Origin: Pseudomonadota bacterium
GTDB lineage: Bacteria; SZUA-182; DTGQ01
NCBI GenBank assembly: GCA_030625085.1
Contig: DAOURK010000006.1
Span: 4,061 to 68,060 of the forward strand
Direction: 5' to 3'
Length of the DNA stretch: 64,000 bases
Shown here: piece after piece, positions 39,657 through 57,502 of the stretch
Numbering within the stretch: the stretch's first letter is position 1
Layout of the letters: the number at the start of each line of letters is the position of its first letter
Program-made: the position numbers and the translations under genes
The notes under the pieces: generated by a model
What the model saw: only the letters and a program-made list of their open reading frames with translations
Database searches by the model: none
Told to the model about the DNA's origin: nothing

Positions 39657-40040
39657 ATGACCGGAAATAGGTATTTTAATAAAGAGCATTTATGGGTTAA
39701 GGTAGACGGGAATGAGGTGACGATTGGACTTAGCGACCATGCCCAGCAAGAACTAGGAGATATTTTATTGGTGGAGCCTTCCGGATTGGACACAGAAATA
39801 GAACAATCGGCTTCTTTTGGTCAGGTCGAATCTGCCAAGGCTGTGTCGGATTTGATATCACCTGTGAGTGGTACTGTTATTGAAGTTAATGAATCATTAG
39901 AGGATGAACCTGAGTTGATTAATGAAGATCCTTATGAAAAGGGATGGATTATCAAATTAGATTTGAAGGATGTCAAGGAATTGGATAATTTAATGGGCGA
40001 AGATGAATATACACGATACCTTCAAGAAGAACTGGATTAA
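39657..40040 (+). CDS. gcvH: Glycine cleavage H-protein-like lipoyl carrier
   Basis: Lipoyl-lysine region SAKAVSDLISPVSGTV and GcvH fold-typical sequence. Confidence 0.8.
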   Translation: MTGNRYFNKEHLWVKVDGNEVTIGLSDHAQQELGDILLVEPSGLDTEIEQSASFGQVESAKAVSDLISPVSGTVIEVNESLEDEPELINEDPYEKGWIIKLDLKDVKELDNLMGEDEYTRYLQEELD

Positions 40041-41757: not shown

Positions 41758-43032
41758 TTGAACGATCAGGATCAAGCCATTGTTATCGGTGGTGGGATAA
41801 CAGGGGTTACCTCGGCCCTTGCTTTAGCTGATAACGGATATAAGGTTTCTATTATTGAAAAAAGCGCCGGCATTGGTGGGCATGCCATGCAGTTTTGCTG
41901 TAAGGCTACTGATCAGTGTAACAGTTGTGGGGTTTGTCTGGCTAAAGATAAAATCATGAAAGCGGCATCTCATCCAGGCATCCATATTTTAACCAACACA
42001 GAGGTAATAGGAGTAGAAGGAGAAGAGCCTCATTTTCAGGTTGAGGTCTTAAAGACACCACGGTTCATTGATGAATATAAATGTATTGCTTGTTCATTGT
42101 GCTATCAAAATTGTCCCAAACCGGGAGAAGCCATTGACCGTCCTTATTTATATTCTGTGCCGAATGCTTTTTACATTAATAAAGAACACTGTTTATACTT
42201 CCAAAAAGGGGAAGAGTGTACTATTTGTGAAGAAAATTGTCCGGCCGGGGCTATCTTTTTTGATCAACAAGAAGAGCGCCATATATTAAAAGCCTCAGCT
42301 ATAATTGTAGCTACCGGGTTTGAAGTATATGATGCCAGAAAAAAAGGATATCTTGGCTATGGGCGTTTTCCGGAGGTGATTTCAGGGCTTGATCTTGAAC
42401 AAAGATTGTTGATGGGTGAAGATACGATAATTTCCAAATCTTCGCCGGGAGGAAAGCCCCGCGTAGCTTTTATTCAATGTGTCGGCTCTCGAGACCCTCA
42501 TATCAGCCATGACTATTGTTCCCGGGTCTGTTGTAAATATGCGGCGCGGATGGCGGCTAAACTGAAATCGAAATGTGATGAAATAGATCTGACCATTTTT
42601 TATATTGATCTTCAGAAAACGGAAAGAGATTTTTTAGCCTTGGTTGAAAGCTTAAAAGAAAATATTCGGTTGGTTAAGGGACTGCCGGTAAAAATCGAAA
42701 AAGCCGAGGATTCCGGAGTAACAATGCGGTATGAAAATATTGATCGAGGATGTATGGAGAGGGAGTCTTTTGATTTGGTTGTGTTATCAGTAGGAATCAG
42801 TCCCTCTGTCGAAAATCAGTCTTTAGCCGGATTGTTGGGTATAAATATTGACGCGAATGGATTTTTCGCTTCAGTCGATTTAATGGATTCTACCATTAGT
42901 TCTCGGAGAGGAATTTTTCTAGCTGGCACCTGCCAGGGGCCAAAGAATCTTATTGAATCTATTTCCCACGGTCAGGAGGCGGCTTTGAGAACACTTGCTT
43001 TAATGAAGGGGCTAGGTGTAAACAATGGATAA
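41758..43032 (+). CDS. hdrA: HdrA-like flavoprotein (FAD thioredoxin-reductase-like domain with inserted 2x[4Fe-4S] ferredoxin)
   Basis: GGGITG Rossmann motif, CIACSLCYQNCP and CTICEENCP cluster motifs, FIQCVGSRD...YCSRVCC. TTG start with AAGGAGG. Confidence 0.75.
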   Translation: MNDQDQAIVIGGGITGVTSALALADNGYKVSIIEKSAGIGGHAMQFCCKATDQCNSCGVCLAKDKIMKAASHPGIHILTNTEVIGVEGEEPHFQVEVLKTPRFIDEYKCIACSLCYQNCPKPGEAIDRPYLYSVPNAFYINKEHCLYFQKGEECTICEENCPAGAIFFDQQEERHILKASAIIVATGFEVYDARKKGYLGYGRFPEVISGLDLEQRLLMGEDTIISKSSPGGKPRVAFIQCVGSRDPHISHDYCSRVCCKYAARMAAKLKSKCDEIDLTIFYIDLQKTERDFLALVESLKENIRLVKGLPVKIEKAEDSGVTMRYENIDRGCMERESFDLVVLSVGISPSVENQSLAGLLGINIDANGFFASVDLMDSTISSRRGIFLAGTCQGPKNLIESISHGQEAALRTLALMKGLGVNNG

Positions 43033-44737
43033 TCAGGTGAAAATAGGGGTATTCTTCTGTGCGTGCGGCCATATTATGAATGACTATTTTGATATGAAGG
43101 CCTTGCTTGATTATGCCGGTAGAATTCCCGGGGTAACCTATGTTGATGAAAATCGGTTTTTATGTACGAGGAGTGGGTTTGATTGGCTGAAGACTAAGAT
43201 TGCCAACACAGGCTGTAATCGAGTGATTATTGTTGGTTGCTCACCACATCTCTATGAACAAAGCTTTATGAAAGTAGTGGAAGAAGCGGGCCTGAATAAA
43301 TATTTTTTGAGCATAGCCAATATTAGAGAGGGATGTGCCTGGGTGTGCCGGGAAAAGGAAAATCTTATGTCCCGGGCCAGACGGATTATAGCCGCAGCCG
43401 TCCAGCGAGTGAGCTTTGCTAAGCCGGTGGAAAAGGTTCGAAAAAATATAAATAGGTCGGCTTTAGTGATCGGAGCGGGGCTTACCGGTATTCAAACAGC
43501 CCTGGAATTGCAACGGTTAGGGATTAAGCCAATACTCATTGAGAAAAAAACCCAGGTAAGTCGAAAGAACCCCCCCTTCTTTATCCCCTGCATAGAGGGT
43601 ATCAATGAACAAGAGATGTTTTCTGCGAAGATTAAAGAGCTTCGGGATAGTAAAATAGAGCTTTTAACCTCTACAGAAGTGAAGGAAGTGAGAGGAAATG
43701 TTGGGTCATTTCAGGTTACCTTGGATACAATGGGGCAAGAAAAAGCGCTGGAAGTGGGCGCTGTTGTTGTCAGTACGGGGGACCAAAGACAGGCAGCAGA
43801 GAGGATACATAATTTGCCGAATTCCCGCCGGATTGTCAGTTTATCCCAATTACGCAATATGTTTGATTTTGAGAGAAGGACCTTGGAGCGGATGTTGGTT
43901 ACTCCGGATAAACGTACTAAATATGCCTGTTTTATTCTTGGGGATTCTGAAAGTTTTACTAAAACAAATACCATTATGGCCCTTAATGAAGCCATTTTTT
44001 TAAAGGAGCAATTCAAAGCGGAAATTGTGATTGCAGCAAAAGACATAACCGTTTCAGGAACAGAACTGGAGCCTCTTTATCGACAGGCCAGACAAAAGGG
44101 GGTTTTGTTTTATCGGTACTCGCAAGATTCATTGCCGGAAATCAGCCTTGAAAAAGGAGTGATTATCGTTCGCTTGCATGATCCGGCTTTAACGGTGAAC
44201 GATGAAGAGAAGGCCGGTTATAATATTGCTGTTTCAAGTGACCTTCTGATACTTGAGGATGAAATTTTTCCCCATGAAGGGACAGATCGCCTGAAGGATA
44301 TTCTTGATATTAATGTGAATCAATGGGGATTTTTTCAAGAAAAGAATATTCATCTGAAACCGAACCTTTCTAATAAAAAAGGGATTTTTCTGGCCGGTGC
44401 TTGTCATGGGGAAGAGGATATTTACGAAACCCTTAATGATATTTGTTCAGTATCAATGGGGGTTTATTCTTATTTGTCTCAAGAATTTTTGGAGTTAGAG
44501 AAAAAGATAGATATTAATACTGATAAGTGTGTGTTATGTTTGACGTGTTTTCGTTCCTGTCCACACAGGGCAATTGAGATAGGGGATGTAGCTTCGGGCC
44601 AGAAACGAGGTGCAATGGTTAATGTTGAGGCGTGCCAGGGGTGTGGTATTTGTGTTGGAGAATGTCCGGCCAAGGCTATTGAAATGGTAACGTATTCAGA
44701 TAACCAGATTTTTTCCGAATTAACCTTTGAGGGGTAA
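43025..44737 (+). CDS. hdrA: HdrA-like protein (HdrA N-terminal Cys domain + FAD domain + C-terminal 2x[4Fe-4S])
   Basis: IGVFFCACGHI...VGCSPH N-domain, GAGLTG Rossmann motif, C-terminal CVLCLTCFRSCP / CQGCGICVGECP. Overlaps the upstream ORF by 8 nt. Confidence 0.7.
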   Translation: MDNQVKIGVFFCACGHIMNDYFDMKALLDYAGRIPGVTYVDENRFLCTRSGFDWLKTKIANTGCNRVIIVGCSPHLYEQSFMKVVEEAGLNKYFLSIANIREGCAWVCREKENLMSRARRIIAAAVQRVSFAKPVEKVRKNINRSALVIGAGLTGIQTALELQRLGIKPILIEKKTQVSRKNPPFFIPCIEGINEQEMFSAKIKELRDSKIELLTSTEVKEVRGNVGSFQVTLDTMGQEKALEVGAVVVSTGDQRQAAERIHNLPNSRRIVSLSQLRNMFDFERRTLERMLVTPDKRTKYACFILGDSESFTKTNTIMALNEAIFLKEQFKAEIVIAAKDITVSGTELEPLYRQARQKGVLFYRYSQDSLPEISLEKGVIIVRLHDPALTVNDEEKAGYNIAVSSDLLILEDEIFPHEGTDRLKDILDINVNQWGFFQEKNIHLKPNLSNKKGIFLAGACHGEEDIYETLNDICSVSMGVYSYLSQEFLELEKKIDINTDKCVLCLTCFRSCPHRAIEIGDVASGQKRGAMVNVEACQGCGICVGECPAKAIEMVTYSDNQIFSELTFEG

Positions 44738-44741
44738 GAGA

Positions 44742-45155
44742 ATGGATTTTATGCCGGCCATAGTGGCTTTTTGTTGTGAAAATTCAGCTTTTCGGGCCGC
44801 AGATACAGCAGGGGCAAAACAGGAAGGATATCCTTCCAACATTAAGATCTGTCGGCTCCCTTGTTCTGGAAAACTAGAGATAAACTATATCTTAAGGGCT
44901 TTTGAAGAGGGCGCTGATGGAGTGTTTATTTTTGCCTGCCATCCGGACAGTTGTAAGTTTCTCAAAGGTAATGTGCGTGCCCAAAAAAGGGTTGAGCATA
45001 CCGGTGCTTTATTAGAAAAAATCGGCATTAAAAAAGAACGTTTGCGTTTTTTTTATTTGTCCGAATTAGAATGGACAAAATTTTTAGATTTAGTTCAGCA
45101 GGGTAATGAAAGCATTAAGGGCTTGGGGCCCTGTCCGACAAAGGTGAAAGTATGA
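44742..45155 (+). CDS. mvhD: MvhD-like (methyl-viologen-reducing hydrogenase delta subunit family) [2Fe-2S] protein
   Basis: IVAFCCENSA...RLPCSG...CHPDSC motifs. Confidence 0.8.
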   Translation: MDFMPAIVAFCCENSAFRAADTAGAKQEGYPSNIKICRLPCSGKLEINYILRAFEEGADGVFIFACHPDSCKFLKGNVRAQKRVEHTGALLEKIGIKKERLRFFYLSELEWTKFLDLVQQGNESIKGLGPCPTKVKV

Positions 45156-45820
45156 TTATTGCAGAACAAAAAGAAATATCAGAAATTATCAATATGGTTG
45201 GCGATCACCGGAAAATTTTGGTGATTGGGTGTGATACCTGTGTTACAGTCTGTTTGTCCGGAGGCGCTAAGGAAGTGGCCATTTTGGCTTCGGCCCTGCG
45301 CTTGGCTTTCCGAGTGCAGGGTAAGCAGGTGGAGGTTAATGAAACCACCATTGAGAGGCAGTGCGAGATAGAATTTGTGGATTCTTTGGAATCTATGGCA
45401 AAGGACAAAGACCTTTTGATTTCAATGGGTTGCGGGATAGGCGTTCAGACCATAGCCGAGCGTTTTTTTCATTTACCGGTGGTGCCTGCCCTGAACACAA
45501 AATTTTTAGGTCTTCCGGAAAAACAGGGTGTCTGGGTTGAGCGATGTCAGGCCTGTGGCCAATGTGTACTAGATAAAACCGGCGGCATTTGTCCGATTTC
45601 TCGATGCTCAAAAAGTTTGCTCAATGGTCCCTGCGGGGGCTCACAAAACGGTAAGTGTGAAATTAATGATGAAATTGATTGTGCTTGGCACCTGATCTAC
45701 GAACGGTTGAAAGCCCTGAATAGACTTGAATGTTTGGAGGAGATCATGCCTGTAAAAGATTGGTCTACCAGCCGTGACGGCGGACCACGGAAAATGATCA
45801 GGGAGGACATGTGTCTATGA
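45152..45820 (+). CDS. metV: MetV paralogue (second copy)
   Basis: Paralogous to 40043-40705; the C-terminal Cys-rich half is conserved (CQACGQCVL...CGGSQNGKC). Confidence 0.7.
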   Translation: MIIAEQKEISEIINMVGDHRKILVIGCDTCVTVCLSGGAKEVAILASALRLAFRVQGKQVEVNETTIERQCEIEFVDSLESMAKDKDLLISMGCGIGVQTIAERFFHLPVVPALNTKFLGLPEKQGVWVERCQACGQCVLDKTGGICPISRCSKSLLNGPCGGSQNGKCEINDEIDCAWHLIYERLKALNRLECLEEIMPVKDWSTSRDGGPRKMIREDMCL

Positions 45821-46758
45821 AGGTAGGTAGCCGTCTGGAAACATTATTAACTCAAGGAGAATTTGTAGCTACCGCAGAGTTAGGACCGCCAAAGAGCGCT
45901 GATCTTGAATTAATCAAGAAAAAGGCCGCCATTTTACGGGGTTATGCAGATGCGGTGAATATTACCGATAATCAGACTGCCATTGTTAGGGTCTCCAGTA
46001 TTGCCGCAGGTAAAATTAGTTTAGATGAGGGATTGGAGCCGATTATCCAGATGACTTGCCGGGATAGAAACCGGTTGGCCATGCAGGCTGATATCCTTGG
46101 TGCCCATGTTTTTGGTCTCAAAAATTTATTATGCCTCAGTGGAGATCATCAAAGCTTCGGTAATCATCCCCAAGCGAAAAACGTTTATGATCTTGATTCG
46201 ATTCAATTGGCTCAGATGGTTAAGAACATGCGGGATGAAAAGGTATTTCAATGTGGTGATGAGATTAAGAATACGAAAAAATCCGAGGTCATAGAACCGC
46301 GGATGTTTGTGGGGGTAGCGGCCAACCCTTTTGCTGATCCCTTTGAATTTAGAGTGATTCGACTGGCCAAAAAAATTAAGGCTGGTGCGGATTTTGTTCA
46401 GACTCAATGCATTTTTGATCTTCCTAAATTTAAAGAGTGGATGAAGATGGTGGTTGATCGGGGTTTGCACGAGAAGGTTTATCTGTTAGCCGGGGTGATG
46501 CCCGTTAAATCCTATCGAGTGCTTCAATATATGAAAAAAAATGTGGCCGGTATGAGTATCCCCGATGAGCTGATTGACAGAATGAAGGGGGCGGAAGACC
46601 CCAAGGCCGAAGGAGTGAAAATTTGTATAGAGCTGATTCAGCAGGTACGTGAAATTGAAGGTATCCGTGGAGTTCATATTATGGCGGTAGAATGGGAGGC
46701 CATTGTACCTTCAATTGTTCAGGAGGCAGGGCTTTACCCAAGACCTCAGATTCAGTGA
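45811..46758 (+). CDS. metF: Methylenetetrahydrofolate reductase (second copy)
   Basis: MTCRDRNR...LSGDHQ motifs. Confidence 0.85.
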   Translation: MSMKVGSRLETLLTQGEFVATAELGPPKSADLELIKKKAAILRGYADAVNITDNQTAIVRVSSIAAGKISLDEGLEPIIQMTCRDRNRLAMQADILGAHVFGLKNLLCLSGDHQSFGNHPQAKNVYDLDSIQLAQMVKNMRDEKVFQCGDEIKNTKKSEVIEPRMFVGVAANPFADPFEFRVIRLAKKIKAGADFVQTQCIFDLPKFKEWMKMVVDRGLHEKVYLLAGVMPVKSYRVLQYMKKNVAGMSIPDELIDRMKGAEDPKAEGVKICIELIQQVREIEGIRGVHIMAVEWEAIVPSIVQEAGLYPRPQIQ

Positions 46759-46894
46759 TCAAACCCGTTTTTAGTGGTTAGTAATTTAGTAATCAGGTTA
46801 AGGTTTTTCTTCTTAGTAAATATTCAATGACCCTTTAGGTCACCATGAAAAAATGAAAAGAGAAAATTTACTGTAAGGAGGGTAGGTAATATCG

Positions 46895-47392
46895 GTGTCG
46901 GAAGAAAAGAAAAATTCCCCAATTAATGTATCAGAACTGGATTCAAAATTTAAATATGAGGTTTCCGAACAACCGGGGGGTGAAAATCTAACGTTATGTT
47001 TTTCTTGTGGTATTTGTACGGCCGGCTGTCCGGTAACCGAGGTGGAAGGCGAATACAATCCCCGAAAATTGATTCGAATGATTTTATTAGGCATGAAGGA
47101 AGAAGTGCTTTCTTCCAATTTGATTTGGTTGTGCTCGCTCTGTTATACCTGCTATGCCCGGTGTCCCCAGAACGTAAAATTTACTGATATCATGGGTGTT
47201 TTGCGTGATATGGCGGTACGGGAAAAGTATGTTGATTCTTCCTTTGTTAAAAATATTGATGAAATTGATCGCCTGTCGCAGCAAATTCGCCATCAAATGG
47301 TACGAGCCATCTTCCCTCAAAAAAAAGAAAACAAATCCATCGATCAGAAAGAATTAGTAAAGATGGCCCTCAAGAATTTGGATAAGGAGTAA
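46895..47392 (+). CDS. hdrC: HdrC-like 2x[4Fe-4S] ferredoxin subunit
   Basis: CFSCGICTAGCP and CSLCYTCYARCP separated by about 35 residues. Confidence 0.7.
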   Translation: MSEEKKNSPINVSELDSKFKYEVSEQPGGENLTLCFSCGICTAGCPVTEVEGEYNPRKLIRMILLGMKEEVLSSNLIWLCSLCYTCYARCPQNVKFTDIMGVLRDMAVREKYVDSSFVKNIDEIDRLSQQIRHQMVRAIFPQKKENKSIDQKELVKMALKNLDKE

Positions 47393-47399
47393 AGGAATT

Positions 47400-50300
47400 A
47401 TGGCGGAGACTGAAGGTCAAAAGAAAATTGGCGCGGTAATGGTTGTTGGCGGAGGTGTTGCCGGTGTCCAATCTGCCCTGGATCTGGCTGATTCCGGATA
47501 CAAGGTTTATATAGTCGAAAGAGGTTTGAGTATTGGCGGGGTTATGGCCCAGTTAGATAAGACCTTTCCGACCAACGACTGTTCCATGTGTATTTTAGCT
47601 CCTAAATTGGTGGATACGGGTCGCCATCAAAATATTGAAATAATAACCAACACTGAAATTCAAAGTGTCGAGGGAGAGGCAGGAAATTTCCGTGTTCAAC
47701 TCCTCAAGCATCCGCGTTTCATTGATGAGACTAAGTGTAATGGGTGCGGTGATTGTGAAAAGGAGTGTCCGGTAGAGGTCCCCAATGAATTTGAACAGGG
47801 ACTGAGCATGCGCAAAGCCATTTATAAGCCCTTTGCCCAGGCCATCCCCAATAAATATTCGATTGACAAACGAGGTAAATCTCCCTGTAAAATTGCTTGC
47901 CCTTTGGGGCAGAACGCCCAAGGCTATATTGCTTTAATCAAGGAGAAAAAATATGCTGAGGCGTATAATCTGATCAAAAGAGATAATCCGATCCCCCTTG
48001 TTTGTGGAAGGATTTGCGCTCATCCTTGTGAAGAGGTTTGCAAAAGGGGAGAGGTTGACGAACCAATGTCTATTGCCGCCCTGAAACGCTTTATCGCTGA
48101 TTATGCCTATAAGCATGATTTTCATGTTGATCTGGAGGTGGCCGAAAAGCGGGAAGAGCGCGTAGCTATCATTGGTTCCGGACCGGCGGGATTAGTAGCT
48201 GCTCATGATCTGGCCCTGAAAGGCTACCAAGTAACCATATATGAAGCCCTGCCGGTAGCGGGAGGCATGTTGGCTGTTGGCATTCCTGATTATCGACTCC
48301 CGCACAATCTCTTACAGTATAAGATTGATCTTATCAAGTCCCTGGGAGTTGAGATTAAATTGAATACTCCCATTGATCCTCATTTTACCTGTGAAGATCT
48401 GAAGGCTGAAGGGTATAAGGCTATTTTACTGGCTACCGGGGCCCATAAGAGTATTAAATTAGGTATTGCCGGCGAGGGTTCAAAGGGGGTTATTCATTGC
48501 ACGGATTTTTTGCGAGAGGTAAATCTTGGCAAGAAGGTAGAGGTTGGAAAACGGGTAGCCGTTATCGGTGGTGGAAATACAGCCGTTGATGCGGCTAGAG
48601 TGGCTTTTCGGCTGGGCGCTGAAGAAATACATATCGTTTATCGTCGGACTCGTCTTGAGATGCCCGCTTTAGAGGATGAAATTGAAGAGGCCGAATTTGA
48701 GGGAGTTAAGATTTTATTTTTAACAGCCCCTGTACAGATTTTGGCTGAAAATGGGCGGGTGGCCGGATTGAAATGCGTGCGTATGGAGTTGGGCGAGCCG
48801 GATGATCGTGGCCGGCGAAGACCCATACCTATTGCCGATTCGGAATTTATCATCCCTATAGATACTGTTATCCCATCAGTGAGTCAGGCACCGGATCTTT
48901 CTTTTTTGCCCGGGGATACGGATTTAAAAATTGGGGCCCATGATACCCTTGACGTTGATCCAATTACCGGGGCCACCAACCAGGAAGGAATTTTTGCCTC
49001 CGGCGAAGTGGTGACCGGTCCGTGGATTGCTGTTCAGGCTATGATTTCCGGTCGAGAAGCCGCCATTTCCATTGATCGGTATCTCAACGATCAGGATATG
49101 CGAAAGGGAAGAGATACGAAAAAAGTTTTTGAAAAGGCGGAACCTCATAAAGAGCGATGGAATGTTGAAATTAAGCCGCGTGTCAGAATGCCGAGGCTTT
49201 CCTTGGAAGAGCGGAAGGGAAATTTTAAGGAAGTAGATTTAGGTTTAACTGAGGAAATGGCCTTAGAAGAAGCCAGACGATGTTTGAATTGTGGTATTTG
49301 CTCGGAATGTATGGAATGTGTAACTACCTGTAAGGCGGAAGCCATTAATCATGATATGAAAGAGCAAACCTTGGAGTTGGAAGTGGGTAGTGTTATTCTG
49401 GCTCCGGGGTATGAAGAATTTGATGCCAAGTTAAAGACCAATTTTGGCTATGGCCGATACCCCGATGTGGTTTCCAGTATTGAGTTTGAGCGTATCTTGA
49501 GCGCCTCCGGTCCCTTCAAAGGGCACATTATCCGTCCCTCGAATCATCAGGAACCCAAGAAAATTGCTTTTATTCAATGCGTTGGCTCCAGGGACACCTC
49601 CTGCGGTAATGATTATTGCTCTTCTGTATGCTGTATGTATTCCATCAAAGAAGCGGTGATTGCCAAGGAACATCTACGTTCCATTGAGCCCACCATCTTT
49701 TATAATGATATGCGGGCCTATGGGAAGGATTTTGATAAGTATGTAAATCGGGCGGAAAAGCAATATGGGGTGCGTTTTATTAAATCTCTTGTCTCCGAAG
49801 TAGAACAAGACCATGACAGCCAGGCCTTAGGTTTAAAATATCTTCAGGAAGATGGGCAATTGATCAGTGAACAATTTGATCTGGTCATTTTAGCTGTCGG
49901 GTTTGAGCCACCTAAAGATGTCCAGGAAATGGCCAAAAGATTACATGTTGATTTAAACAGATATGGTTTTTGCCGGACAGAGACCATGTCACCCTTAAGG
50001 ACTTCTCGAGCAGGTATATATGCGTGCGGGGCTTTTGTCAGCCCTAAGGACATTCCGGAAACTGTTATGCAGGCCAGCGGGGCAGCCAGCGAAGCCTCAG
50101 CTTTGTTGTCTTCGGCCCGAAATACGCTGATTACAGAAAGGACCTATCCGCCGGAAAGAGATGTCTCCGGGGATACTCCTCGGATCGGCGTTTTTGTTTG
50201 CCATTGCGGCATCAACATAGGCGGCTTTGTGAATGTTCCCGAGGTTAAAGATTATGCCTTAACGCTTCCTTTTGTAAAGTATGCTGCTGAGAATCTGTAT

Positions 50301-51839
50301 ACATGTTCTGAAGATACCCAGCAGAAAATGGTGGAGGTCATCAAGGAACATAATTTAAACCGGGTGATTGTTGCCTCCTGTTCTCCCAGGACCCATGAGC
50401 CCCTTTTTCAGGAGACCATTCGTGAAGCGGGTCTTAATCCCTATCTTTTTGAGATGGCCAATATTAGAGATCAATGTTCCTGGGTGCATATGTTTGAAAA
50501 GGAAAAGGCCACGGAAAAGGCCAAGGACCTGGTTCGGATGGCTGTGTATAAAGCGGCCCTGATCGAGCCGCTCCAACGGCTTTCTTTGCCGGTAAATCCG
50601 GCCGGTTTGGTTATTGGGGGAGGCGTAGCCGGCATGATGAGCGCCTTATCCTTAGCTGAACAGGGATTCGATGTCCATCTGGTAGAGAAAGAGTCGCTCC
50701 TTGGTGGGGTGGCCAGAAAGATTTATTATACTCCCGGGGAAAGGGATTTCCCCTCTATCTTGAAATGGATGATTAATCGAATTCAACAACATCCCTTAAT
50801 TCATCTTTATCTGGATTCCGAGGTGGTTGAGGTCTCGGGATTTGTTGGTACTTTTGCCTCGATTATTCGCTCTAAAAAGCGGGAAATTCCCATTGAACAT
50901 GGGGCGATTATAGTAGCTACCGGTGGAGAGGAATCTGTCCCCCAGGAATATTTATATGGACAAAACCCAAAAGTGGTTACTGCACATGATTTAGAATATT
51001 TGATTGCCAAAGAAGATCCCGAGCTTATGAATGCTCAAAACGTGGTTATGATTCAATGCGTCGGTTCTCGGGAAGAAGGGCGGATGTATTGTAGTCGAGT
51101 GTGCTGTATCCAAAGCATAAAGAACGCCCTGCGCTTAAAAGAGATAAATCCTTTGGTTAACATTTATATCCTTTATAGAGATATTCGTACCTATGGATTT
51201 TGGGAAGAATACTATCAGCAGGCCCGTTCAAAGGGAGTTGTTTTTATTCGCTATGATCTAGAGGAAAAGCCCCTTGTCTCCAGCAATGGGTCCGGCACGA
51301 TAGTTATTCAAACGAAAGACCCGATTTTGAATCAACAGGTACTTTTGTCGGCTGATTTTTTGACCTTGGCGCCGGCTATTTTGGCCCCGGAAAGCAATAA
51401 AGATCTGGCCCGGATGTTAAAGGTGCCGGTCAATGAAGATAGATTTTTCCTAGAGGCTCACATGAAATTGCGGCCTGTGGATTTTGCCACTGATGGTATT
51501 TTCGTTTGTGGTCTAGCCCATGCCCCAAAATCGATAGATGAAAGCATTGCTCAGGCTAAGGCAGCCGCAGCCAGGGCCTCTCAAGTTTTAAGTAAGTCTG
51601 CCATTCAGACCCAGGGGCAGACGGCTAAGGTTGATAAAAACCGGTGTGCAGGATGTGGTATTTGTGAGCTGGTTTGTGCCTATAAGGCCATTGAATTGGA
51701 CCTTGAAGAAAAATGCGCCAAGGTAAACGAGGCCCTTTGTAAAGGATGCGGGGCCTGTGCCGCTACCTGTCGTTCAGGGGCGTTAGATGTCAAAGGATTT
51801 ACGAACCAACAGATATTTGAGATGATGGAGGCCTTATGA
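47400..51839 (+). CDS. hdrA: Giant HdrA-family fusion flavoprotein (HdrA FAD/Fd segment, inserted GltD/NfnB-like NAD(P)H-FAD-2x[4Fe-4S] module, rest of HdrA, then a second complete HdrA unit)
   Basis: 1479 aa with three GxGxxG Rossmann motifs (GGGVAG, GSGPAG, GGGVAG), GltD-like CGRICAHPCEEVC, two copies of the IQCVGSR...YCSxVCC inserted-ferredoxin motif, an internal RIGVFVCHCGINI...ASCSPR HdrA N-domain, and C-terminal CAGCGICELVC / CKGCGACAATC. Confidence 0.75.
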   Translation: MAETEGQKKIGAVMVVGGGVAGVQSALDLADSGYKVYIVERGLSIGGVMAQLDKTFPTNDCSMCILAPKLVDTGRHQNIEIITNTEIQSVEGEAGNFRVQLLKHPRFIDETKCNGCGDCEKECPVEVPNEFEQGLSMRKAIYKPFAQAIPNKYSIDKRGKSPCKIACPLGQNAQGYIALIKEKKYAEAYNLIKRDNPIPLVCGRICAHPCEEVCKRGEVDEPMSIAALKRFIADYAYKHDFHVDLEVAEKREERVAIIGSGPAGLVAAHDLALKGYQVTIYEALPVAGGMLAVGIPDYRLPHNLLQYKIDLIKSLGVEIKLNTPIDPHFTCEDLKAEGYKAILLATGAHKSIKLGIAGEGSKGVIHCTDFLREVNLGKKVEVGKRVAVIGGGNTAVDAARVAFRLGAEEIHIVYRRTRLEMPALEDEIEEAEFEGVKILFLTAPVQILAENGRVAGLKCVRMELGEPDDRGRRRPIPIADSEFIIPIDTVIPSVSQAPDLSFLPGDTDLKIGAHDTLDVDPITGATNQEGIFASGEVVTGPWIAVQAMISGREAAISIDRYLNDQDMRKGRDTKKVFEKAEPHKERWNVEIKPRVRMPRLSLEERKGNFKEVDLGLTEEMALEEARRCLNCGICSECMECVTTCKAEAINHDMKEQTLELEVGSVILAPGYEEFDAKLKTNFGYGRYPDVVSSIEFERILSASGPFKGHIIRPSNHQEPKKIAFIQCVGSRDTSCGNDYCSSVCCMYSIKEAVIAKEHLRSIEPTIFYNDMRAYGKDFDKYVNRAEKQYGVRFIKSLVSEVEQDHDSQALGLKYLQEDGQLISEQFDLVILAVGFEPPKDVQEMAKRLHVDLNRYGFCRTETMSPLRTSRAGIYACGAFVSPKDIPETVMQASGAASEASALLSSARNTLITERTYPPERDVSGDTPRIGVFVCHCGINIGGFVNVPEVKDYALTLPFVKYAAENLYTCSEDTQQKMVEVIKEHNLNRVIVASCSPRTHEPLFQETIREAGLNPYLFEMANIRDQCSWVHMFEKEKATEKAKDLVRMAVYKAALIEPLQRLSLPVNPAGLVIGGGVAGMMSALSLAEQGFDVHLVEKESLLGGVARKIYYTPGERDFPSILKWMINRIQQHPLIHLYLDSEVVEVSGFVGTFASIIRSKKREIPIEHGAIIVATGGEESVPQEYLYGQNPKVVTAHDLEYLIAKEDPELMNAQNVVMIQCVGSREEGRMYCSRVCCIQSIKNALRLKEINPLVNIYILYRDIRTYGFWEEYYQQARSKGVVFIRYDLEEKPLVSSNGSGTIVIQTKDPILNQQVLLSADFLTLAPAILAPESNKDLARMLKVPVNEDRFFLEAHMKLRPVDFATDGIFVCGLAHAPKSIDESIAQAKAAAARASQVLSKSAIQTQGQTAKVDKNRCAGCGICELVCAYKAIELDLEEKCAKVNEALCKGCGACAATCRSGALDVKGFTNQQIFEMMEAL

Positions 51840-52324
51840 GTGTAGAGAAAAAAAAGAGTCAACAGCAATCCTGGGAACCGAAAATTGTGGCCTTCCTTTG
51901 TAATTGGTGCAGCTATGCGGGAGCTGACCTGGCCGGCATTAGTAGAATTCAATATCCTCCTAATGTCCGTGTTATTCGGGTCCCGTGCTCCGGCAGGATC
52001 AATCCGGTTTTTATTTTGAAGGCATTGCAGAGTGGAACTGACGCTGTTTTAGTATCAGGCTGTCATCCGGGAGATTGTCATTACGTAAGCGGCAATTATT
52101 ATGCTCGAAGAAAATTTGAGATTTTTGACCATTTGCTGGATTTTGTGGGGTTGGAAAAGGGAAGGGTCTTTTTTTCCTGGGTTTCGGCTGCAGAGGGAGA
52201 AAATTTCGGCCATTTAATTAAGCATGTTGTGGATGAGGTAAAGAAACTGGGACCTGCTCATAAATTAGTGAAAACCATTGAAGGGCCAGTAGCCAATTGT
52301 CAGCAAACAATGGTCGAAGGGTAA
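51836..52324 (+). CDS. mvhD: MvhD-like / FlxD-like protein
   Basis: IVAFLCNWCSYAG...VPCSG...CHPGDC motifs. ATGA start/stop overlap with the upstream gene. Confidence 0.8.
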   Translation: MSVEKKKSQQQSWEPKIVAFLCNWCSYAGADLAGISRIQYPPNVRVIRVPCSGRINPVFILKALQSGTDAVLVSGCHPGDCHYVSGNYYARRKFEIFDHLLDFVGLEKGRVFFSWVSAAEGENFGHLIKHVVDEVKKLGPAHKLVKTIEGPVANCQQTMVEG

Positions 52325-52377
52325 GTAAATAATCTGAAAGCCAATTTTAAAATTGATAAATCATTATGGAGTAAATT

Positions 52378-53337
52378 ATGTGGTCAAAGGAAATAACTCA
52401 GAAGATCCGAGCCACTGCGGAATCTTTGCTACTCGAAGGAAAGGTTGACCTCATTATCGGCTATGAGGCAGGCAGCACTCCTTTACGAACAGCTCCTTCT
52501 TTTGTGCGATCAGCGGAGCAGGCTTCTTTGTTGGTTTGGAACCCTTTTTGTGAGAATAACCTCAGTGTTTATTTAGAAGGGAGAAAAGAGAAGGTAGGTC
52601 TGATGGCTAAAGGCTGTGATGCCAGAGCCGCAGTGGTTGCTTTACAGGAAAAACGTATTGATCGAGACCGATTGCTAATTATTGGTCTTCCGTGCTCCGG
52701 AGTTGTTGATCGACAAAAATTAGCCGCCTCGGTAAATATTGATGCTGTTAAGGCTTTTTCGGTTGATAAGGATTCACTCGTGCTTCAGACAGAAGAAGAA
52801 GTACGGCTACCTTTAGAGGATGTTTTGCATGCTTCCTGTAAGACTTGTTCGCGAAGAAACGCTCCGGTGTCGGATATTTTTATTGGTGAAAAAAGCTCTG
52901 AGCCTCAGGTCAAGGACGAGTTTGCAGAGGTAAAATCTTTCGAGGGTTTGGGCACTCAGGAGCGGTGGCGCTATTTTCGTGAATTGGCCCAAAAATGTAT
53001 TCGCTGTTACGCTTGCCGAAATGCCTGTCCTTTATGTTATTGTCAGGAATGTATTGTTGACCAGACACAACCACAGTGGTTCGGGAAGACTGCTGCTGAA
53101 GAAGATACATTAATTTATCATATTATACGTGCTTACCATTGTGCGGGAAGGTGTATTGATTGCGGTGCCTGCTCTAGGGCCTGTCCTATGGGTATTGATT
53201 TAAGACTTTTAAACAAAAAACTTCAAAAGGACGTGCAGGAGCTTTATCACTATATTCCCGGATTAAATCCGGATGAAGCGCCAGCCTTTGGTACGTTTAA
53301 GCTTGATGATCCGCAGGATTGTATCACGGAAAAATAA
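52378..53337 (+). CDS. Iron-sulfur oxidoreductase subunit (HydB/AsrA-like; FlxC-like)
   Basis: AKGCDARAA motif and a C-terminal 2x[4Fe-4S] (CIRCYACRNACP...CIDCGACSRACP). Confidence 0.55.
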   Translation: MWSKEITQKIRATAESLLLEGKVDLIIGYEAGSTPLRTAPSFVRSAEQASLLVWNPFCENNLSVYLEGRKEKVGLMAKGCDARAAVVALQEKRIDRDRLLIIGLPCSGVVDRQKLAASVNIDAVKAFSVDKDSLVLQTEEEVRLPLEDVLHASCKTCSRRNAPVSDIFIGEKSSEPQVKDEFAEVKSFEGLGTQERWRYFRELAQKCIRCYACRNACPLCYCQECIVDQTQPQWFGKTAAEEDTLIYHIIRAYHCAGRCIDCGACSRACPMGIDLRLLNKKLQKDVQELYHYIPGLNPDEAPAFGTFKLDDPQDCITEK

Positions 53338-53385
53338 AGAATAATAGGGATTTGAAGAAGGAATCATAAGAATAGGAATTAACAA

Positions 53386-54396
53386 ATGGATACAGGGATT
53401 ATAAAGAAGGAAAATATCAAAGGTGTTATCGAGAGCTTGATGCAAATGGGAAAGGTGGTGGCCCCGACTCGGCAAGATGATATGACTGTGTTTTCGGCTT
53501 TACCCTCCAGTGAGGCCTTAGATCTTAATTATACCAATAGCAAATTAAGCCCTAAGGATTATTTTTTTCCTCAAACCGAGGTGCTTTTTTGTTACGAAAA
53601 AGAAAATAATCAAATTCATCCACCGCTCATTGAAGACAAGCCCGCTTGCCTGGTGGGAGTTCGTCCCTGCGATGCTAAGGCTATAACTTTATTGGATTGT
53701 ATTTTCAATGATCCGCAGTATAAGGATGTCTATTATCTCAACAAGCGCAAAAACACTGTGGTGATTGGTCTTGCCTGTACGAATCCCCAAAGCACCTGTT
53801 TTTGTACCTCCACGGGAGGAGGCCCATTGGATACTACCGGTATGGATATGCTTTGGCAAGATCTTGGTGATAGATATCTGATCAAAGCAGTAACTCCTCA
53901 GGGAAAAGAATTGGCCTCTAAGCTTTTCGGTATTGATAAGGCACCGGAAAAGGACCTTTCTTACGCCAAGAAGCAGGGCGAGAAGGTCCTGTCGATGATT
54001 CCACCGGCCTTTGAGGCAGAAAAGATTTCTGAGAAATTACGTTCCTCATTTGAGGATTCTGTCTGGGAAACAATTCATGAAAAATGTTTAGGGTGCGCGG
54101 CCTGTACCTTTGTTTGCCCTACTTGTCATTGCTTCGATATACAGGATGAAAACAGCCGGGACCGGGGGAGACGAGTGAAGTTGTGGGACTCTTGTATGTT
54201 TCCCCTCTTTACACTTCATACATCAGGACATAATCCCAGGTTATCGGGTAAAGAACGTATGCGGCAAAGAATTATGCACAAATTTAATTATTTTAAGGTT
54301 AATAACGGACACGTTGCCTGTGTCGGCTGCGGAAGATGTATCAGGGAATGTCCGGTCAATATGGATATTAGACAGATAGTATCGGCGTTTAGTTGA
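53386..54396 (+). CDS. Iron-sulfur oxidoreductase subunit (sulfhydrogenase beta / AsrA-like; FlxB-like)
   Basis: VGVRPCDAKA motif, CLGCAACTFVCPTCHC and CVGCGRCIRECP clusters. Confidence 0.6.
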   Translation: MDTGIIKKENIKGVIESLMQMGKVVAPTRQDDMTVFSALPSSEALDLNYTNSKLSPKDYFFPQTEVLFCYEKENNQIHPPLIEDKPACLVGVRPCDAKAITLLDCIFNDPQYKDVYYLNKRKNTVVIGLACTNPQSTCFCTSTGGGPLDTTGMDMLWQDLGDRYLIKAVTPQGKELASKLFGIDKAPEKDLSYAKKQGEKVLSMIPPAFEAEKISEKLRSSFEDSVWETIHEKCLGCAACTFVCPTCHCFDIQDENSRDRGRRVKLWDSCMFPLFTLHTSGHNPRLSGKERMRQRIMHKFNYFKVNNGHVACVGCGRCIRECPVNMDIRQIVSAFS

Positions 54397-54407
54397 GGAA
54401 AGAGAAA

Positions 54408-55247
54408 ATGGAGAATCCCTATTTACCAAAAAATGTAAAGATAGAAAAAATTATTGATGAGACAGCGGGAAAGGATATTAAAAGTTTTGTCTTATCCTTT
54501 CTGAATCCTCAAGATTGCGAAGCTTTTTCGTATCATCCAGGTCAGTTTGCCGAAATTTCCATTGCCGGGGCCGGAGAAATTCCTATTGGTATTGCTTCAT
54601 CTCCTTCCGAGGGAGTAGAAGTGAAATTTACGGTAAAAAAAATGGGGGTGGTAACGAAAGACCTTCATAATTCTTCCGCCGGGCGGATTATTGGTTTGCG
54701 AGGACCTTACGGAAATGGTTTTCCCATGGAAGAGCTAAAGGGTAAAAATATTGTCATTGTAGGGGGAGGGTTTGCTTTTACTACCTTGCGATCTTTGGCT
54801 GTGTATTTGATGGATGATTCCCGCAGGAAGGATTACGGGGATATTACTATTATCTGTGGGGCCAGGACCCCGGGTGATCTTATTTATCGTCAAGAAGTGG
54901 AAACTTGGGCTTCCCAGCCTGATTTAAAGGTCCAGGTGACCGTTGATAAGGGAAATGCGGATTGGAGTGGGAGAGAGGGTTTTATTCCGCCTGTGGTCAA
55001 GGAAGTGGCTCCTTCTGCGGATAATGCCATAGCCTTGGTTTGCGGCCCTCCGATAATGATTAAACTTACCATTCCTATTCTTTTTGATCTGGGCTTTGCG
55101 CCCAACAAAATTTTGAATTCACTAGAGATGAGAATGAAATGTGGATTTGGTAAATGTGGCCGCTGTAACATCGGAAATAAATATGTTTGCAAAGATGGGC
55201 CGGTTTTTACCTTTGAGGAACTACAAAAACTCCCTCAAGAATATTAA
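54408..55247 (+). CDS. FAD/NAD(P)-binding oxidoreductase with C-terminal [2Fe-2S] (HydG/AsrB/PyrK-like; FlxA-like)
   Basis: Ferredoxin-NADP reductase-type fold motifs and C-terminal CGFGKCGRC. An alternative TTG start at 54393 overlaps the upstream stop. Confidence 0.65.
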   Translation: MENPYLPKNVKIEKIIDETAGKDIKSFVLSFLNPQDCEAFSYHPGQFAEISIAGAGEIPIGIASSPSEGVEVKFTVKKMGVVTKDLHNSSAGRIIGLRGPYGNGFPMEELKGKNIVIVGGGFAFTTLRSLAVYLMDDSRRKDYGDITIICGARTPGDLIYRQEVETWASQPDLKVQVTVDKGNADWSGREGFIPPVVKEVAPSADNAIALVCGPPIMIKLTIPILFDLGFAPNKILNSLEMRMKCGFGKCGRCNIGNKYVCKDGPVFTFEELQKLPQEY

Positions 55248-56728: not shown

Positions 56729-57502
56729 ATGAGTTATATAATTGCAGTGGCCGGTAAAGGTGGAACGGGGAAAACGACTTTATGCGGGTTAATGATTCGT
56801 TATCTTTTGGCTAAAGGGAAATCACCGGTTTTGGCCGTAGATGCTGATGCGAATGCGAATCTTCATGAGGTCTTGGGATTAGAAATAGCAGAATCCGTGG
56901 GTGCCCTTCGGGAAAAGGCTATGGCTGAAGTAAAGGATCTTCCACTGGGAGTAACCAAGGAGCAATATATTGAGCAGAGAATTCATGAGATTCTGGTGGA
57001 AAGCTCTGGCGTTGATTTAATGACTATGGGCAGACCTGAGGGGCCGGGATGCTATTGCTATGCCAATCATCTTATTCGAAAATATAGTGAAAGAATCGGC
57101 CAAAGCTATAAATACGTTATTATGGACAATGAGGCCGGACTGGAACATCTCAGTCGAAGGACAACGCAAGGTGTGGATGCCCTGGTTATCTCTACTGATG
57201 AAACCCTGCGCGGTCTTCGCACTGTTCAACGGATACTGGATATTATTGTGGAGTTACAGCTTGATATCAAAAAAACCTATCTGGTAGTTAATCGCTCTTT
57301 AAACGGCCTTACCGATGCCTTTCATGAGGCGATTACCGGAATGAGAGTGCAATTTTTAGGCGCTATTCCTTCAGACAAACGTTTAATCCAGTTTGATTTA
57401 GAAGGTAAGCCATTGATTCAATTGCCGGATAATTCTCTTGCTGTACAAAAGGTATCGGATATGATGCTTGAGTTGGTTGAGAAGAACGTTGAGAATAAAT
57501 AG
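56729..57502 (+). CDS. cooC: CooC/AcsF-type Ni-insertion ATPase (second copy)
   Basis: GKGGTGKTT Walker A and the GCYCYAN CxC motif. Confidence 0.85.
   Translation: MSYIIAVAGKGGTGKTTLCGLMIRYLLAKGKSPVLAVDADANANLHEVLGLEIAESVGALREKAMAEVKDLPLGVTKEQYIEQRIHEILVESSGVDLMTMGRPEGPGCYCYANHLIRKYSERIGQSYKYVIMDNEAGLEHLSRRTTQGVDALVISTDETLRGLRTVQRILDIIVELQLDIKKTYLVVNRSLNGLTDAFHEAITGMRVQFLGAIPSDKRLIQFDLEGKPLIQLPDNSLAVQKVSDMMLELVEKNVENK

Follow-up and report, generated by a model that had tools for sequence, protein, structure and literature searches.

The 64,000-nucleotide stretch analysed here (the window), from contig DAOURK010000006.1 of an uncultivated Pseudomonadota bacterium, carries an eleven-gene unit of the order hdrA'-hdrA''-mvhD-metV-metF-hdrC-hdrL-mvhD-fdhB'-hydB'-hydG' within an array of Wood-Ljungdahl genes, and it contains no gene for HdrB. 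The modest novelty of the region lies in an eleven-gene version of the Hdr-type methylene-tetrahydrofolate (methylene-THF) reductase cluster that is conserved and lacks HdrB; the large HdrA fusion encoded by hdrL is itself not new. The region is most likely the electron-input part of the Wood-Ljungdahl pathway's methyl branch, an HdrB-less variant of the Hdr-type (type IV) methylene-THF reductase. We estimate a probability of about 60% that the genes encode a methylene-THF reductase built on HdrL and linked to NAD(P)H, either bifurcating or confurcating, with MetV and MetF (MetVF) in place of HdrB, and a much lower one for any specific wiring. The eleven genes are as follows.

41758..43032, + strand: HdrA' (424 aa, 46 kDa); NCBIfam HdrA2/HdrA models
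43025..44737, + strand: HdrA'' (570 aa, 64 kDa); NCBIfam HdrA models in two stretches, Pfam Fer4 at residues 495-555
44727..45155, + strand: MvhD1 (142 aa), [2Fe-2S] connector; Pfam FlpD, E 5.3e-41 over the whole domain; NCBIfam VhuD, E 3e-36
45152-45820, + strand: MetV2; Pfam DUF5981, E 1e-38
45811-46758, + strand: MetF2; Pfam MTHFR, E 2.7e-41
46895..47392, + strand: HdrC-like 2x[4Fe-4S] protein (165 aa); Pfam Fer4_8 and Fer4_17
47400..51839, + strand: HdrL (1479 aa, 163.4 kDa); phmmer against the PDB, Pfam Fer4_20 and Pyr_redox_2
51836..52324, + strand: MvhD2 (162 aa), [2Fe-2S] connector; Pfam FlpD, E 7.2e-53
52378..53337, + strand: FdhB/FrhB-like iron-sulfur subunit (319 aa), FlxC position; Pfam FrhB_FdhB_C at aa 71-173 plus Fer4 motifs
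53386..54396, + strand: HydB/AsrA-like iron-sulfur subunit (336 aa), FlxB position; Pfam Fer4_22, E 2e-33
54393..55247, + strand: HydG/AsrB-like subunit (284 aa) of the NAD(P)H:flavin adenine dinucleotide (FAD):[2Fe-2S] type, FlxA position; Pfam NAD_binding_1 and DHODB_Fe-S_bind

Absence of HdrB from the window and conservation of the unit

A preliminary description of this DNA, made from the sequence alone, had given the coordinates of the open reading frames (ORFs), all on the forward strand, and had reported one MvhD after each HdrA block and no CCG-domain HdrB anywhere in the 64 kb. These statements were upheld. The two MvhD proteins, which are 34% identical to each other, gave FlpD matches with E values of 5e-41 and 7e-53, and the six frames of the window contained neither a CCG-domain (HdrB) signature nor a CCG tripeptide in any ORF of at least 100 aa. 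A BLAST search of the window with the HdrB of L003, one of the loci compared below, gave no match. The preliminary description had itself named an hdrB elsewhere in the operon as a finding that would overturn its proposal; we looked for such a gene, and none was present in the 64 kb. Only 7 nt separate the hdrC-like stop codon from the beginning of hdrL, so that no remnant of hdrB lies between the two.

The full order of the unit recurred in two relatives of the same lineage, L085 (GCA_049472335.1) and L086, with subunit identities of 52-90%: HdrL was 81% identical in L085 (other subunits, 67-90%) and 77% identical in L086 (other subunits, 52-87%), and no CCG ORF was found in 24 kb of either locus. 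In L086, the unit is flanked by FolD-GcvH-MetV1-MetF1 upstream and by CooC-AcsE-AcsD-AcsC and carbon monoxide dehydrogenase (CODH) genes downstream. In L085 it adjoins, instead of the acetyl-CoA synthase (ACS)/CODH genes, those of a 1178-aa protein (415-3951) with faint multihaem-cytochrome Pfam matches and of an NHL-repeat protein; the unit is thus intact away from the ACS genes, which indicated that it moves as a block. The same unit was present in L001 (GCA_040755755.1, 80% identical), but there ~9 kb (343-9288) separates metF from hdrC; the recognisable genes of this insert are mostly of toxin-antitoxin type (RelB, PIN, ParE, HicAB, nucleotidyltransferase and others).

An altered order, hdrA'-hdrA''-metV-metF-hdrC-hdrL-mvhD followed by the FdhB/HydB/HydG-like trio, was found in L042 (a Bacillota metagenome-assembled genome [MAG]), L056 (a termite Spirochaetes MAG) and L066, and the first eight genes of the unit recurred in L084 (a Dehalococcoidia MAG). 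In L042, an MvhD (FlpD) domain is fused to the C terminus of the HdrA'' homologue (6552-7892), giving a QmoB-like fusion. The metV-metF genes lie between the two Hdr blocks in L085, L086, L042, L056, L066 and L084, and the HdrC-like gene is directly upstream of hdrL in every locus carrying the unit. No CCG signature was detected in L085, L086, L001, L056, L066 or L084, and the CCG tripeptides of L042, considered as a possible HdrB, were located only in CobS and in an HdrA-like protein. Full-text literature searches yielded no description of an eleven-gene HdrB-less unit, which is not proof of absence.

The gene context of HdrL was then scored across relatives. ORFs of 84 loci were labelled by BLASTP with the proteins of the window, and HdrB was sought with the L003 HdrB as the query and with a CCG regular expression. 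The counts refer to 85 HdrL genes in 82 loci, with MetV plus MetF scored within 8 kb on the same strand, MvhD within 2.5 kb and CCG proteins within 8 kb. MvhD was found near 70/85 HdrL genes, MetV plus MetF near 39/85, and the complete FdhB/HydB/HydG-like trio near 17/85; the presence of CCG proteins among the latter two groups was distributed as follows.

HdrL with MetVF only: 19 with a CCG protein, 16 without
HdrL with the FdhB/HydB/HydG-like trio only: 8 with a CCG protein, 5 without
HdrL with both MetVF and the trio: 1 with a CCG protein, 3 without

These data indicated that the modules are combinable and that HdrB-less forms are a recurrent minority. We also observed, in Desulfobacterota HdrL-MvhD-MetVF loci, ORFs of ~177-195 aa with a CCG-domain-like Cys pattern that may be minimal one-domain HdrB proteins (L024:1560-2123, L027:1087-1653, L034:8881-9447, L035:17868-18434, L039:18030-18614, L044:9397-9960, L048:11008-11538, L049:17836-18411 and L053:15940-16503). 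These short ORFs were missed by the standard HdrB BLAST, and most of their loci also have a long (~240-280 aa) HdrC-like ORF.

Architecture of HdrL and of the accompanying subunits

HdrL is encoded by one unbroken ORF with an AAGGAG ribosome-binding site upstream, and its stop codon is overlapped by the start of MvhD2 (51836). The preliminary description had taken 47400-51839 for a single 1479-aa polypeptide, and homologues of equal length confirmed this. The protein was mapped by phmmer against the PDB, with 5odc_A, the 654-aa HdrA of Methanothermococcus thermolithotrophicus, as the reference. The inserted ferredoxin domain is divided between two stretches. Its first half, together with the FAD Rossmann fold, occupies residues 13-158 of HdrL (HdrA 146-291), and its second half, along with the remainder of the thioredoxin-reductase-like domain, occupies residues 634-850 (HdrA 293-510); the first FAD domain runs to residue ~906. 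Residues 160-641 form an NfnB/GltD module, which aligned over HdrL 161-564 with 4ylf_B (E 6e-98) and 5jca_L (E 7e-94) and which also had the Stn-type transhydrogenase chains 8oh5_C and 9n5u_A among its best PDB matches. Consistently, Pfam placed Fer4_20 (aa 160-239) and Pyr_redox_2 (aa 254-548) between the HdrA-type FAD and ferredoxin segments. The second unit comprises residues 926-1097, which correspond to HdrA 3-174 (the N-terminal cluster domain, with 926-1060 matching HdrA 3-140, and another Rossmann fold), a divergent second FAD domain at 1098-1337, and residues 1338-1478, which correspond to HdrA 506-648 (the second FAD domain's end together with the C-terminal ferredoxin domain). Two HdrA-type GGGVAG Rossmann motifs are present in the protein.

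The layout HdrA-GltD-HdrA proposed earlier was therefore correct in placing a GltD/NfnB module inside an HdrA segment, as supported by Pfam and phmmer, and incorrect in calling the second part a full HdrA, since neither unit is one. Unit 1 combines an inserted ferredoxin domain with the canonical flavin site, its Cys61 and Cys64 aligning with HdrA Cys194 and Cys197, and is devoid of the N-terminal and C-terminal ferredoxin domains. Unit 2 possesses these two domains and is devoid of the inserted ferredoxin domain, with no Cys in residues 1026-1220. The cluster cysteines and the nucleotide motif GGGNTAxD...YRR were invariant in 12 homologues (56-82% identity). Judged by its sequence, HdrL is a pair of complementary partial HdrAs fused as an intramolecular pseudo-heterodimer, with NfnB spliced into the inserted ferredoxin domain; such complementarity has been read as a built-in heterodimer and explicitly ascribed to the Moorella HdrA (Chadwick 2022). 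The HdrL of the window uses Cys at the Cys61/Cys64 site. In Desulfobacterota, the stop-to-stop ORF of HdrL was often split ~60-100 residues from the N terminus (L017, L019, L030-L032, L034-L036, L039, L043, L048, L049, L051, L053, L060, L061, L063, L069 and L077), which fits an in-frame TGA (selenocysteine) near this position (HdrA Cys194/197), as reported for HdrL1 and HdrL3 of Desulfobacterium autotrophicum HRM2.

It had been suggested in the preliminary description that the HdrA-GltD fusion might be undescribed, with the reservation that a common and already annotated family would speak against this. The HdrL family is exactly that. A protein search with HdrL returned at least 8000 matches, and the best 120 clusters were all 1465-1657 aa long and 52-94% identical; some matches are annotated as "heterodisulfide reductase subunit A-like polyferredoxin", and the sources include Aerophobetes, Deltaproteobacteria and Thermoplasmatota MAGs. 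The best 80 loci, taken at one genome per species, matched HdrL over residues ~1-1479 and belong to Desulfobacterota, Acidobacteriota, Bacillota, Chloroflexota, Aminicenantes, Spirochaetes, Planctomycetes and an Asgard archaeon. In the scan of species-genome contigs the best match among those listed was 57% identical and none of them came from the window's own lineage; the relatives L085, L086 and L001 were reached via protein ids instead. Full-length homologues thus occur in at least 120 protein clusters and at least 80 species genomes, and the fusion is common, described and ordinary.

HdrL was named in D. autotrophicum as an HdrA/glutamate-synthase fusion that always has mvhD after it (Strittmatter 2009), and it has been discussed for Syntrophobacter fumaroxidans, Desulfotomaculum reducens and Desulfurivibrio dismutans. 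In the MetFV-HdrCBA-MvhD complex of Moorella thermoacetica, the type IV methylene-THF reductase, HdrA has a mass of 162.8 kDa; in its N-terminal part, GltD interrupts an additional ferredoxin domain and an additional thioredoxin-reductase-like domain, its C-terminal part has no inserted ferredoxin, and it shows an NADH:benzyl viologen activity of 190 U/mg (Kremp 2022). An NfnB insertion in the inserted ferredoxin domain is also known from HdrA9-11 of the archaeal group ANME-1, and fused or tandem HdrA heterodimers have been described, including the Moorella HdrA, in which two HdrAs are fused, one having lost Cys197 and the other the N-terminal domain (Chadwick 2022). With 163.4 kDa and the same layout, HdrL appears equivalent to the 162.8-kDa Moorella protein (Moth_1194), a likeness that rests on the published domain description and mass, not on an alignment. 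The preliminary description had used as a contrast this very Moorella complex, whose HdrA has the domain order and size of HdrL (Kremp 2022).

The ORFs of HdrA' (41758-43032) and HdrA'' (43025-44737) overlap by exactly 8 nt, ATGGATAA, so that direct reading confirmed the tandem HdrA pair at 41758-44737 and the overlap reported earlier. HdrA' starts with TTG at 41758, with an AAGGAGG site upstream. It has a FAD (thioredoxin-reductase-like) domain and an intact inserted 2x[4Fe-4S] ferredoxin domain, is without the N-terminal domain and a C-terminal ferredoxin domain, and matched the NCBIfam HdrA2/HdrA profiles at positions ~140-560 only; it is collinear with HdrL 25-170 and 636-889 (35-39% identity), corresponding to unit 1 minus the NfnB module. 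HdrA'' consists of the HdrA N-terminal Cys domain, a FAD domain without the inserted ferredoxin and a C-terminal 2x[4Fe-4S] ferredoxin domain, and it is collinear end to end with HdrL 928-1473 (29% identity, E 1e-65), corresponding to unit 2. HdrA' keeps the motif QCVGSRD...YCSRVCC, and the QCVGSR...CC cluster motif, kept in both HdrL units as well, is lost in HdrA''. By these alignments, HdrA'/HdrA'' is an unfused, NfnB-less paralogue of the two-unit HdrA of HdrL. The pair is divided likewise in L085, L086, L084 and L012.

The HdrC-like protein has eight Cys in two CX2CX2CX3C motifs and also resembles the N-terminal third of QmoC, matching positions 2-110 of the 360-position qmoC model. The three subunits downstream of MvhD2 had been described as two HydB/AsrA-like iron-sulfur proteins and one HydG/AsrB-like protein, together a FlxDCBA-like module. 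By domain content the module stands, with one of its iron-sulfur subunits being FdhB-like. The 336-aa subunit matched the sulfhydrogenase I beta chain 9nez_B (E 5e-47 over residues 7-327) and NCBIfam ShyB, HydB and AsrA (E 3e-55 to 8e-47, all under the cut-offs). For the 319-aa subunit, in contrast, the best solved relative was FdhB of the Fdh-Hdr supercomplex (7bkb_E, E 2.9e-29); it had no NCBIfam family match, and its similarity to the 336-aa subunit is weak and confined to the iron-sulfur region (24% over 147 aa). In Fdh-Hdr complexes, FdhAB take the place of MvhAG as the electron donor to Hdr (Chadwick 2022). The assignment of the 284-aa subunit as a HydG/AsrB-like FAD/NAD/[2Fe-2S] protein was confirmed by Pfam and by a match to the sulfhydrogenase I gamma chain 9nez_C (E 3.5e-57, 197 bits) that far exceeds that to NfnA 4ylf_A (E 6.5e-15, 58 bits), and the protein also matched NCBIfam HydG, AsrB and ShyC.

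Proposed electron flow and its alternatives

In HdrA, electrons pass from MvhD via the ferredoxin domain at the C terminus to FAD and then to either HdrBC or the inserted ferredoxin domain: one exit starts at the cluster in the thioredoxin-reductase-like domain and leads to HdrC and HdrB, and the other goes from a cluster ligated by the N-terminal domain and Cys197 to ferredoxin, with the inserted ferredoxin domain in between (Chadwick 2022). In the Moorella enzyme, NADH oxidation takes place at the large HdrA and methylene-THF is reduced at MetF, and Mock 2014 proposed NADH bifurcation for the enzyme; the methylene-THF/methyl-THF couple has an E0' of -200 mV. The preliminary description had envisaged an HdrB-less, NAD(P)H-linked, bifurcating complex feeding MetFV, and the NAD(P)H-binding modules in the Wood-Ljungdahl and MetVF context make an NAD(P)H-linked, probably bifurcating complex serving MetFV a reasonable reading.

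In such a complex, HdrL-MvhD2 would form the core. [quoted passage not shown] High-potential electrons would leave the HdrA flavin by the iron-sulfur cluster of the thioredoxin-reductase-like domain and pass via HdrC and MetV to MetF and methylene-THF. MetVF would thereby stand where HdrB and the heterodisulfide stand in methanogens, with methylene-THF in the role of the heterodisulfide, and a second couple, of lower potential, would be linked to this exergonic step, namely ferredoxin or a second pyridine nucleotide. With the NfnB module placed in the low-potential exit of a canonical HdrA, and with two nicotinamide sites in the set, a transhydrogenase-like coupling is possible. HdrA'/HdrA'' with MvhD1 may provide a free ferredoxin-interacting exit, the inserted ferredoxin domain of HdrA' being unobstructed in this lineage; for D. 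reducens, a large HdrA with NADH domains has been proposed to oxidise NADH and a second HdrA to reduce ferredoxin (Otwell 2016). In an acetate-oxidising organism the flow could be reversed.

A more ambitious version of this reading would have the products of all eleven genes assemble, independently of HdrB, into a single super-complex in which two HdrA pseudo-dimers surround MetVF. The ferredoxin exit of HdrL would be plugged by NfnB, with pyridine-nucleotide input at two nicotinamide sites (the second in the HydG/HydB/FdhB-like chain), MetVF reached via HdrC would form the high-potential arm, and HdrA'/HdrA''/MvhD1 would be the low-potential exit to ferredoxin. In this complete form we consider the proposal tentative and unlikely.

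Several points weigh against the favoured HdrL-MetVF reading. Gene order and homology are the grounds on which we infer a physical complex, its stoichiometry and wiring, the exchange of HdrB for MetVF and the nature of the second couple. With the Moorella complex, methylene-THF reduction driven by NADH has never been shown, and its second acceptor is so far a postulate. The HdrC-like protein scores 94.5 bits with its best NCBIfam match, the CoB-CoM heterodisulfide reductase subunit C, for which the cut-off is 160 bits. The HdrA' homologue of L042 has no detectable ferredoxin domain, so that the role proposed for the split pair is not general. Further points of this kind concern the whereabouts of hdrB and the autonomy of MetVF, and on each of them an alternative explanation can be built.

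The locus may belong to a canonical type IV MetFV-HdrCBA-MvhD enzyme as in Moorella, with hdrB (or hdrBC, or an hdrD-like gene) at another locus and a heterodisulfide-type site that still serves as a catalytic or second-substrate site. The absence of HdrB described above covers the 64-kb window, and hdrB could be encoded elsewhere in the genome: in type I Acetothermia metVF-hdrA-mvhD are clustered with hdrBC elsewhere, for which reason the step from 64 kb to an HdrB-less complex in the preliminary description is insecure, and hdrABC are often not co-localised with metFV-mvhD (Poudel 2018). Moreover, HdrB or a short CCG protein lies near many HdrL genes; HdrB is found beside HdrL in L003, L006, L007, L010, L012, L013, L070 and others, directly upstream of it and within the ACS cluster in L003 (58% identical), and among the MetVF-only HdrL loci flanked by 5 kb or more on each side, a CCG protein was present in 14/20 (6 without). 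Yet no CCG protein lies in the ~24 kb of each of seven unit-bearing loci, which represent at least four lineages, the hdrC-like gene has been retained 7 nt from hdrL while hdrB is specifically missing, and in L085 the unit was relocated as a block without gaining hdrB. We regard an hdrB elsewhere as unlikely, if a serious contender. Alternatively, independent systems might share the operon, MetVF being a stand-alone, reduced-ferredoxin-dependent (type II) methylene-THF reductase. A separate soluble redox-balancing enzyme of the NAD(P)H:ferredoxin or NADH:NADP+ (Nfn/Stn-like) type, made up of HdrL-MvhD and the FdhB/HydB/HydG-like subunits, would supply the pathway with the right carriers. Purified MetVF from C. 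ljungdahlii and Sporomusa ovata is active alone with reduced ferredoxin, and in S. ovata MetVF was purified without the Hdr and MvhD proteins, whose interaction with it was seen in pull-downs only. HdrL-MvhD occurs with the FdhB'-HydB'-HydG' trio and no MetVF in 13/85 cases, and with MetVF and no trio in 35/85, so that the modules are separable. The cluster also holds homologues of both Nfn subunit types (the NfnB-like module and the PyrK/HydG-like subunit), and the Stn-type matches to the NfnB module fit this scheme as well. Against it, metV-metF lies inside the conserved unit, between the Hdr blocks, at every locus that carries it, the S. ovata pull-downs show MetF and MetV interacting with HdrA, HdrB and MvhD (Kremp 2022), and the Moorella proteins were enriched together. 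Separate enzymes seem improbable to us.

A technical origin of the 1479-aa ORF or of the 424/570-aa pair, by frameshift, read-through or misassembly, has a negligible chance of being correct. The preliminary description had itself stated that a frameshift or read-through would undo its reading of the fusion; this was checked and is not the case, as the conserved length of HdrL and the conserved split of the pair refute it. No support for an artefact was found, although in principle a frameshift might be suspected from the 8 nt by which the split pair overlaps. The best 120 database clusters and the best 80 genome loci share the length and domain order of HdrL, a 76-kb contig of a public NCBI assembly also contains its exact sequence and that of CODH, the pair is split in the same way at the four loci named above, and ribosome-binding sites precede the starts of hdrL and hdrA'.

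Known systems, genomic setting and implications

With the Moorella MetFV-HdrCBA-MvhD complex, the window shares MetV, MetF, MvhD, a putative HdrC, a ~163-kDa HdrA of the same domain order with an NAD(P)H site, and the Wood-Ljungdahl context. It differs in having no hdrB, in gene order (metVF-hdrC-hdrL-mvhD versus hdrCBA-mvhD-metVF in Moorella), and in possessing the three extra FdhB/HydB/HydG-like genes, the unfused HdrA'/HdrA''/MvhD set and a second MetVF pair. MetF and MetV are encoded together with hdr and mvhD genes, as in type IV, and the HdrB of that type is missing from the 64 kb. NADH oxidation by HdrL is predicted from the Moorella protein. HdrL of the window has the features of its family, i.e., a length of ~1450-1650 aa with two FAD units, an NfnB module in the ferredoxin domain of unit 1, complementary loss of Cys197 and the N-terminal domain, and mvhD after the gene. 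The HdrL proteins of HRM2 and S. fumaroxidans are likewise large HdrA/glutamate-synthase fusions with an NADH-binding site and mvhD following, but their loci are tied to dsrABC, hdrABC or fdh in a sulfate-reduction context and several are selenoproteins; in the window, HdrL is accompanied by MetVF and HydBG-like subunits and has Cys in place of selenocysteine.

The FlxABCD-HdrABC system of Desulfovibrio vulgaris (Ramos 2015) and the Flx-like/large-HdrA locus of D. reducens resemble the cluster in having an NAD(P)H:FAD:[2Fe-2S] subunit, two iron-sulfur subunits and an MvhD-type subunit beside HdrA. The 284-aa protein would be FlxA, the 336-aa and 319-aa proteins FlxB/FlxC and MvhD2 FlxD, a match by domain content and not by alignment with DVU2399-2402. 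Unlike that system, the window has no HdrB, implicates no DsrC-type acceptor, shows the reverse gene order and has one FdhB-like iron-sulfur subunit. The 319-aa subunit resembles FdhB of the Fdh-Hdr supercomplex (7bkb), and the 336-aa and 284-aa subunits resemble the beta chain and the gamma chain (NADPH diaphorase) of sulfhydrogenase I (9nez); FdhA and the hydrogenase large and small subunits are absent, leaving the electron-transfer and NAD(P)H parts only.

Among the NfnAB/Stn transhydrogenases (4ylf, 5jca, 8oh5 and 9n5u) the resemblance lies in a complete NfnB-type module (Fer4_20 plus FAD/NAD(P)H domains) and a PyrK-type FAD/[2Fe-2S] subunit in the cluster. An identification as NfnAB was rejected, for the NfnB part is an internal module of HdrL and not a subunit, and the PyrK-type subunit, three genes downstream, is HydG-like (197 versus 58 bits to NfnA). 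HdrA9-11 of ANME-1 have NfnB inserted at the same point, and the tandem or fused HdrA heterodimers of Chadwick 2022 share out Cys197 and the N-terminal domain in the complementary way seen in fused form in HdrL and in adjacent genes in the 424/570 pair. In comparison with ANME HdrA3/4 the order is opposite, the N-terminal unit bearing Cys197 and the C-terminal unit the N-terminal domain, and in contrast to the ANME HdrAs in general the context is bacterial, tetrahydrofolate-based and MetVF-linked. QmoABC, which pairs two HdrA-like flavoproteins with the membrane subunit QmoC (an HdrC-like part joined to a haem b membrane part), was rejected as well: the resemblance is limited to the small plus large HdrA pair, the HdrC-like protein has 165 aa and covers only the start of the qmoC model, and the window contains no apr or sat genes.

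The unit forms part of a single co-directional (+) gene array at 38257-63032, in the order CooC, FolE, GcvH, MetV1-MetF1, HdrA', HdrA'', MvhD1, MetV2-MetF2, HdrC-like, HdrL, MvhD2, the three iron-sulfur/flavin subunits, Lpd, CooC, AcsE, AcsD, AcsC and CODH. The genes next to the unit are listed below as context, which does not imply membership of the complex.

39657..40040, + strand: GcvH (lipoyl carrier protein); Pfam GCV_H, E 6.5e-43
40043-40705, + strand: MetV1; Pfam DUF5981 (MetV C-terminal domain), E 5.8e-37
40702-41598, + strand: MetF1; Pfam MTHFR, E 3.3e-43
55322..56722, + strand: Lpd (dihydrolipoamide dehydrogenase); Pfam Pyr_redox_2, E 2.8e-72, and Pyr_redox_dim, E 2.8e-41
56729..63032, + strand: CooC, AcsE, AcsD, AcsC and CODH (Wood-Ljungdahl carbonyl branch); Pfam CbiA, Pterin_bind, CdhD, CdhD plus iron-sulfur, and Prismane, E 4e-177

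The MetV1-MetF1 pair, which precedes the start of the region delimited in the preliminary description, is directly upstream of hdrA'-hdrA''-mvhD1, and MetV2-MetF2 lies between the two Hdr blocks, directly upstream of hdrC-hdrL-mvhD2; the MetV and MetF paralogues are 44% and 40% identical, respectively. A scan of 37000-56900 for promoters and terminators was close to shuffled sequence (33 versus 37.3±5.9 promoter-like and 27 versus 21.0±4.6 terminator-like sites) and gave no convincing site in the intergenic gaps of this interval; the Rfam scan returned three tRNAs only, distant from the cluster. A gene for an IclR-family regulator (37197-37991, same strand) directly upstream of the array is a possible regulator of it. 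The Hdr/MetVF genes are bracketed by gcvH (39657-40040) and lpd (55322-56722), and GcvH recurs beside HdrL or HdrC in distant loci (L003:19384-19848, L014:1-1796 and L086:993-1376). A protein-bound dithiol/disulfide next to an HdrB-less Hdr system is suggestive, and it may merely reflect glycine cleavage/synthase chemistry at methylene-THF. Elsewhere in the window, 8348-21435 is a replication origin region with dnaA (13585-14922), gyrB (10869-13277) and gyrA (8348-10834) on the - strand and rnpA (15448-15810), yidC, mnmE, parA and parB on the + strand; at 14-16 kb the skew in GC reverses its sign and GC content reaches its minimum (0.297), and YidC has a periplasmic domain typical of diderms. 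Close relatives by GyrB were bacterial MAGs (74-97% identity), and Nitrospirota MAGs (~61%) were the nearest with a phylum name. In L003, an AcsB/CdhC homologue (1-1383; 1713 aa) carries two intein (Intein_splicing plus LAGLIDADG) insertions.

Taken together, the kind of system encoded here is not new, and the locus offers a useful lead for biochemists and for the annotation of MAGs, in which such genes are labelled only "FAD-dependent oxidoreductase". The second electron acceptor of the Moorella complex has not been found since 2014. A conserved natural variant that keeps HdrL, MvhD, an HdrC-like protein and MetVF without HdrB suggests that HdrB may be dispensable for coupling to MetVF, and the added HydBG/FdhB-like module and second HdrA pair point to candidates for the missing partner, namely, a second pyridine nucleotide or ferredoxin reached via the second HdrA. 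If the super-complex exists, ferredoxin via the second HdrA would be the long-sought second acceptor of Hdr-type methylene-THF reductases, and the CCG subunit would be dispensable for HdrA-based bifurcation.

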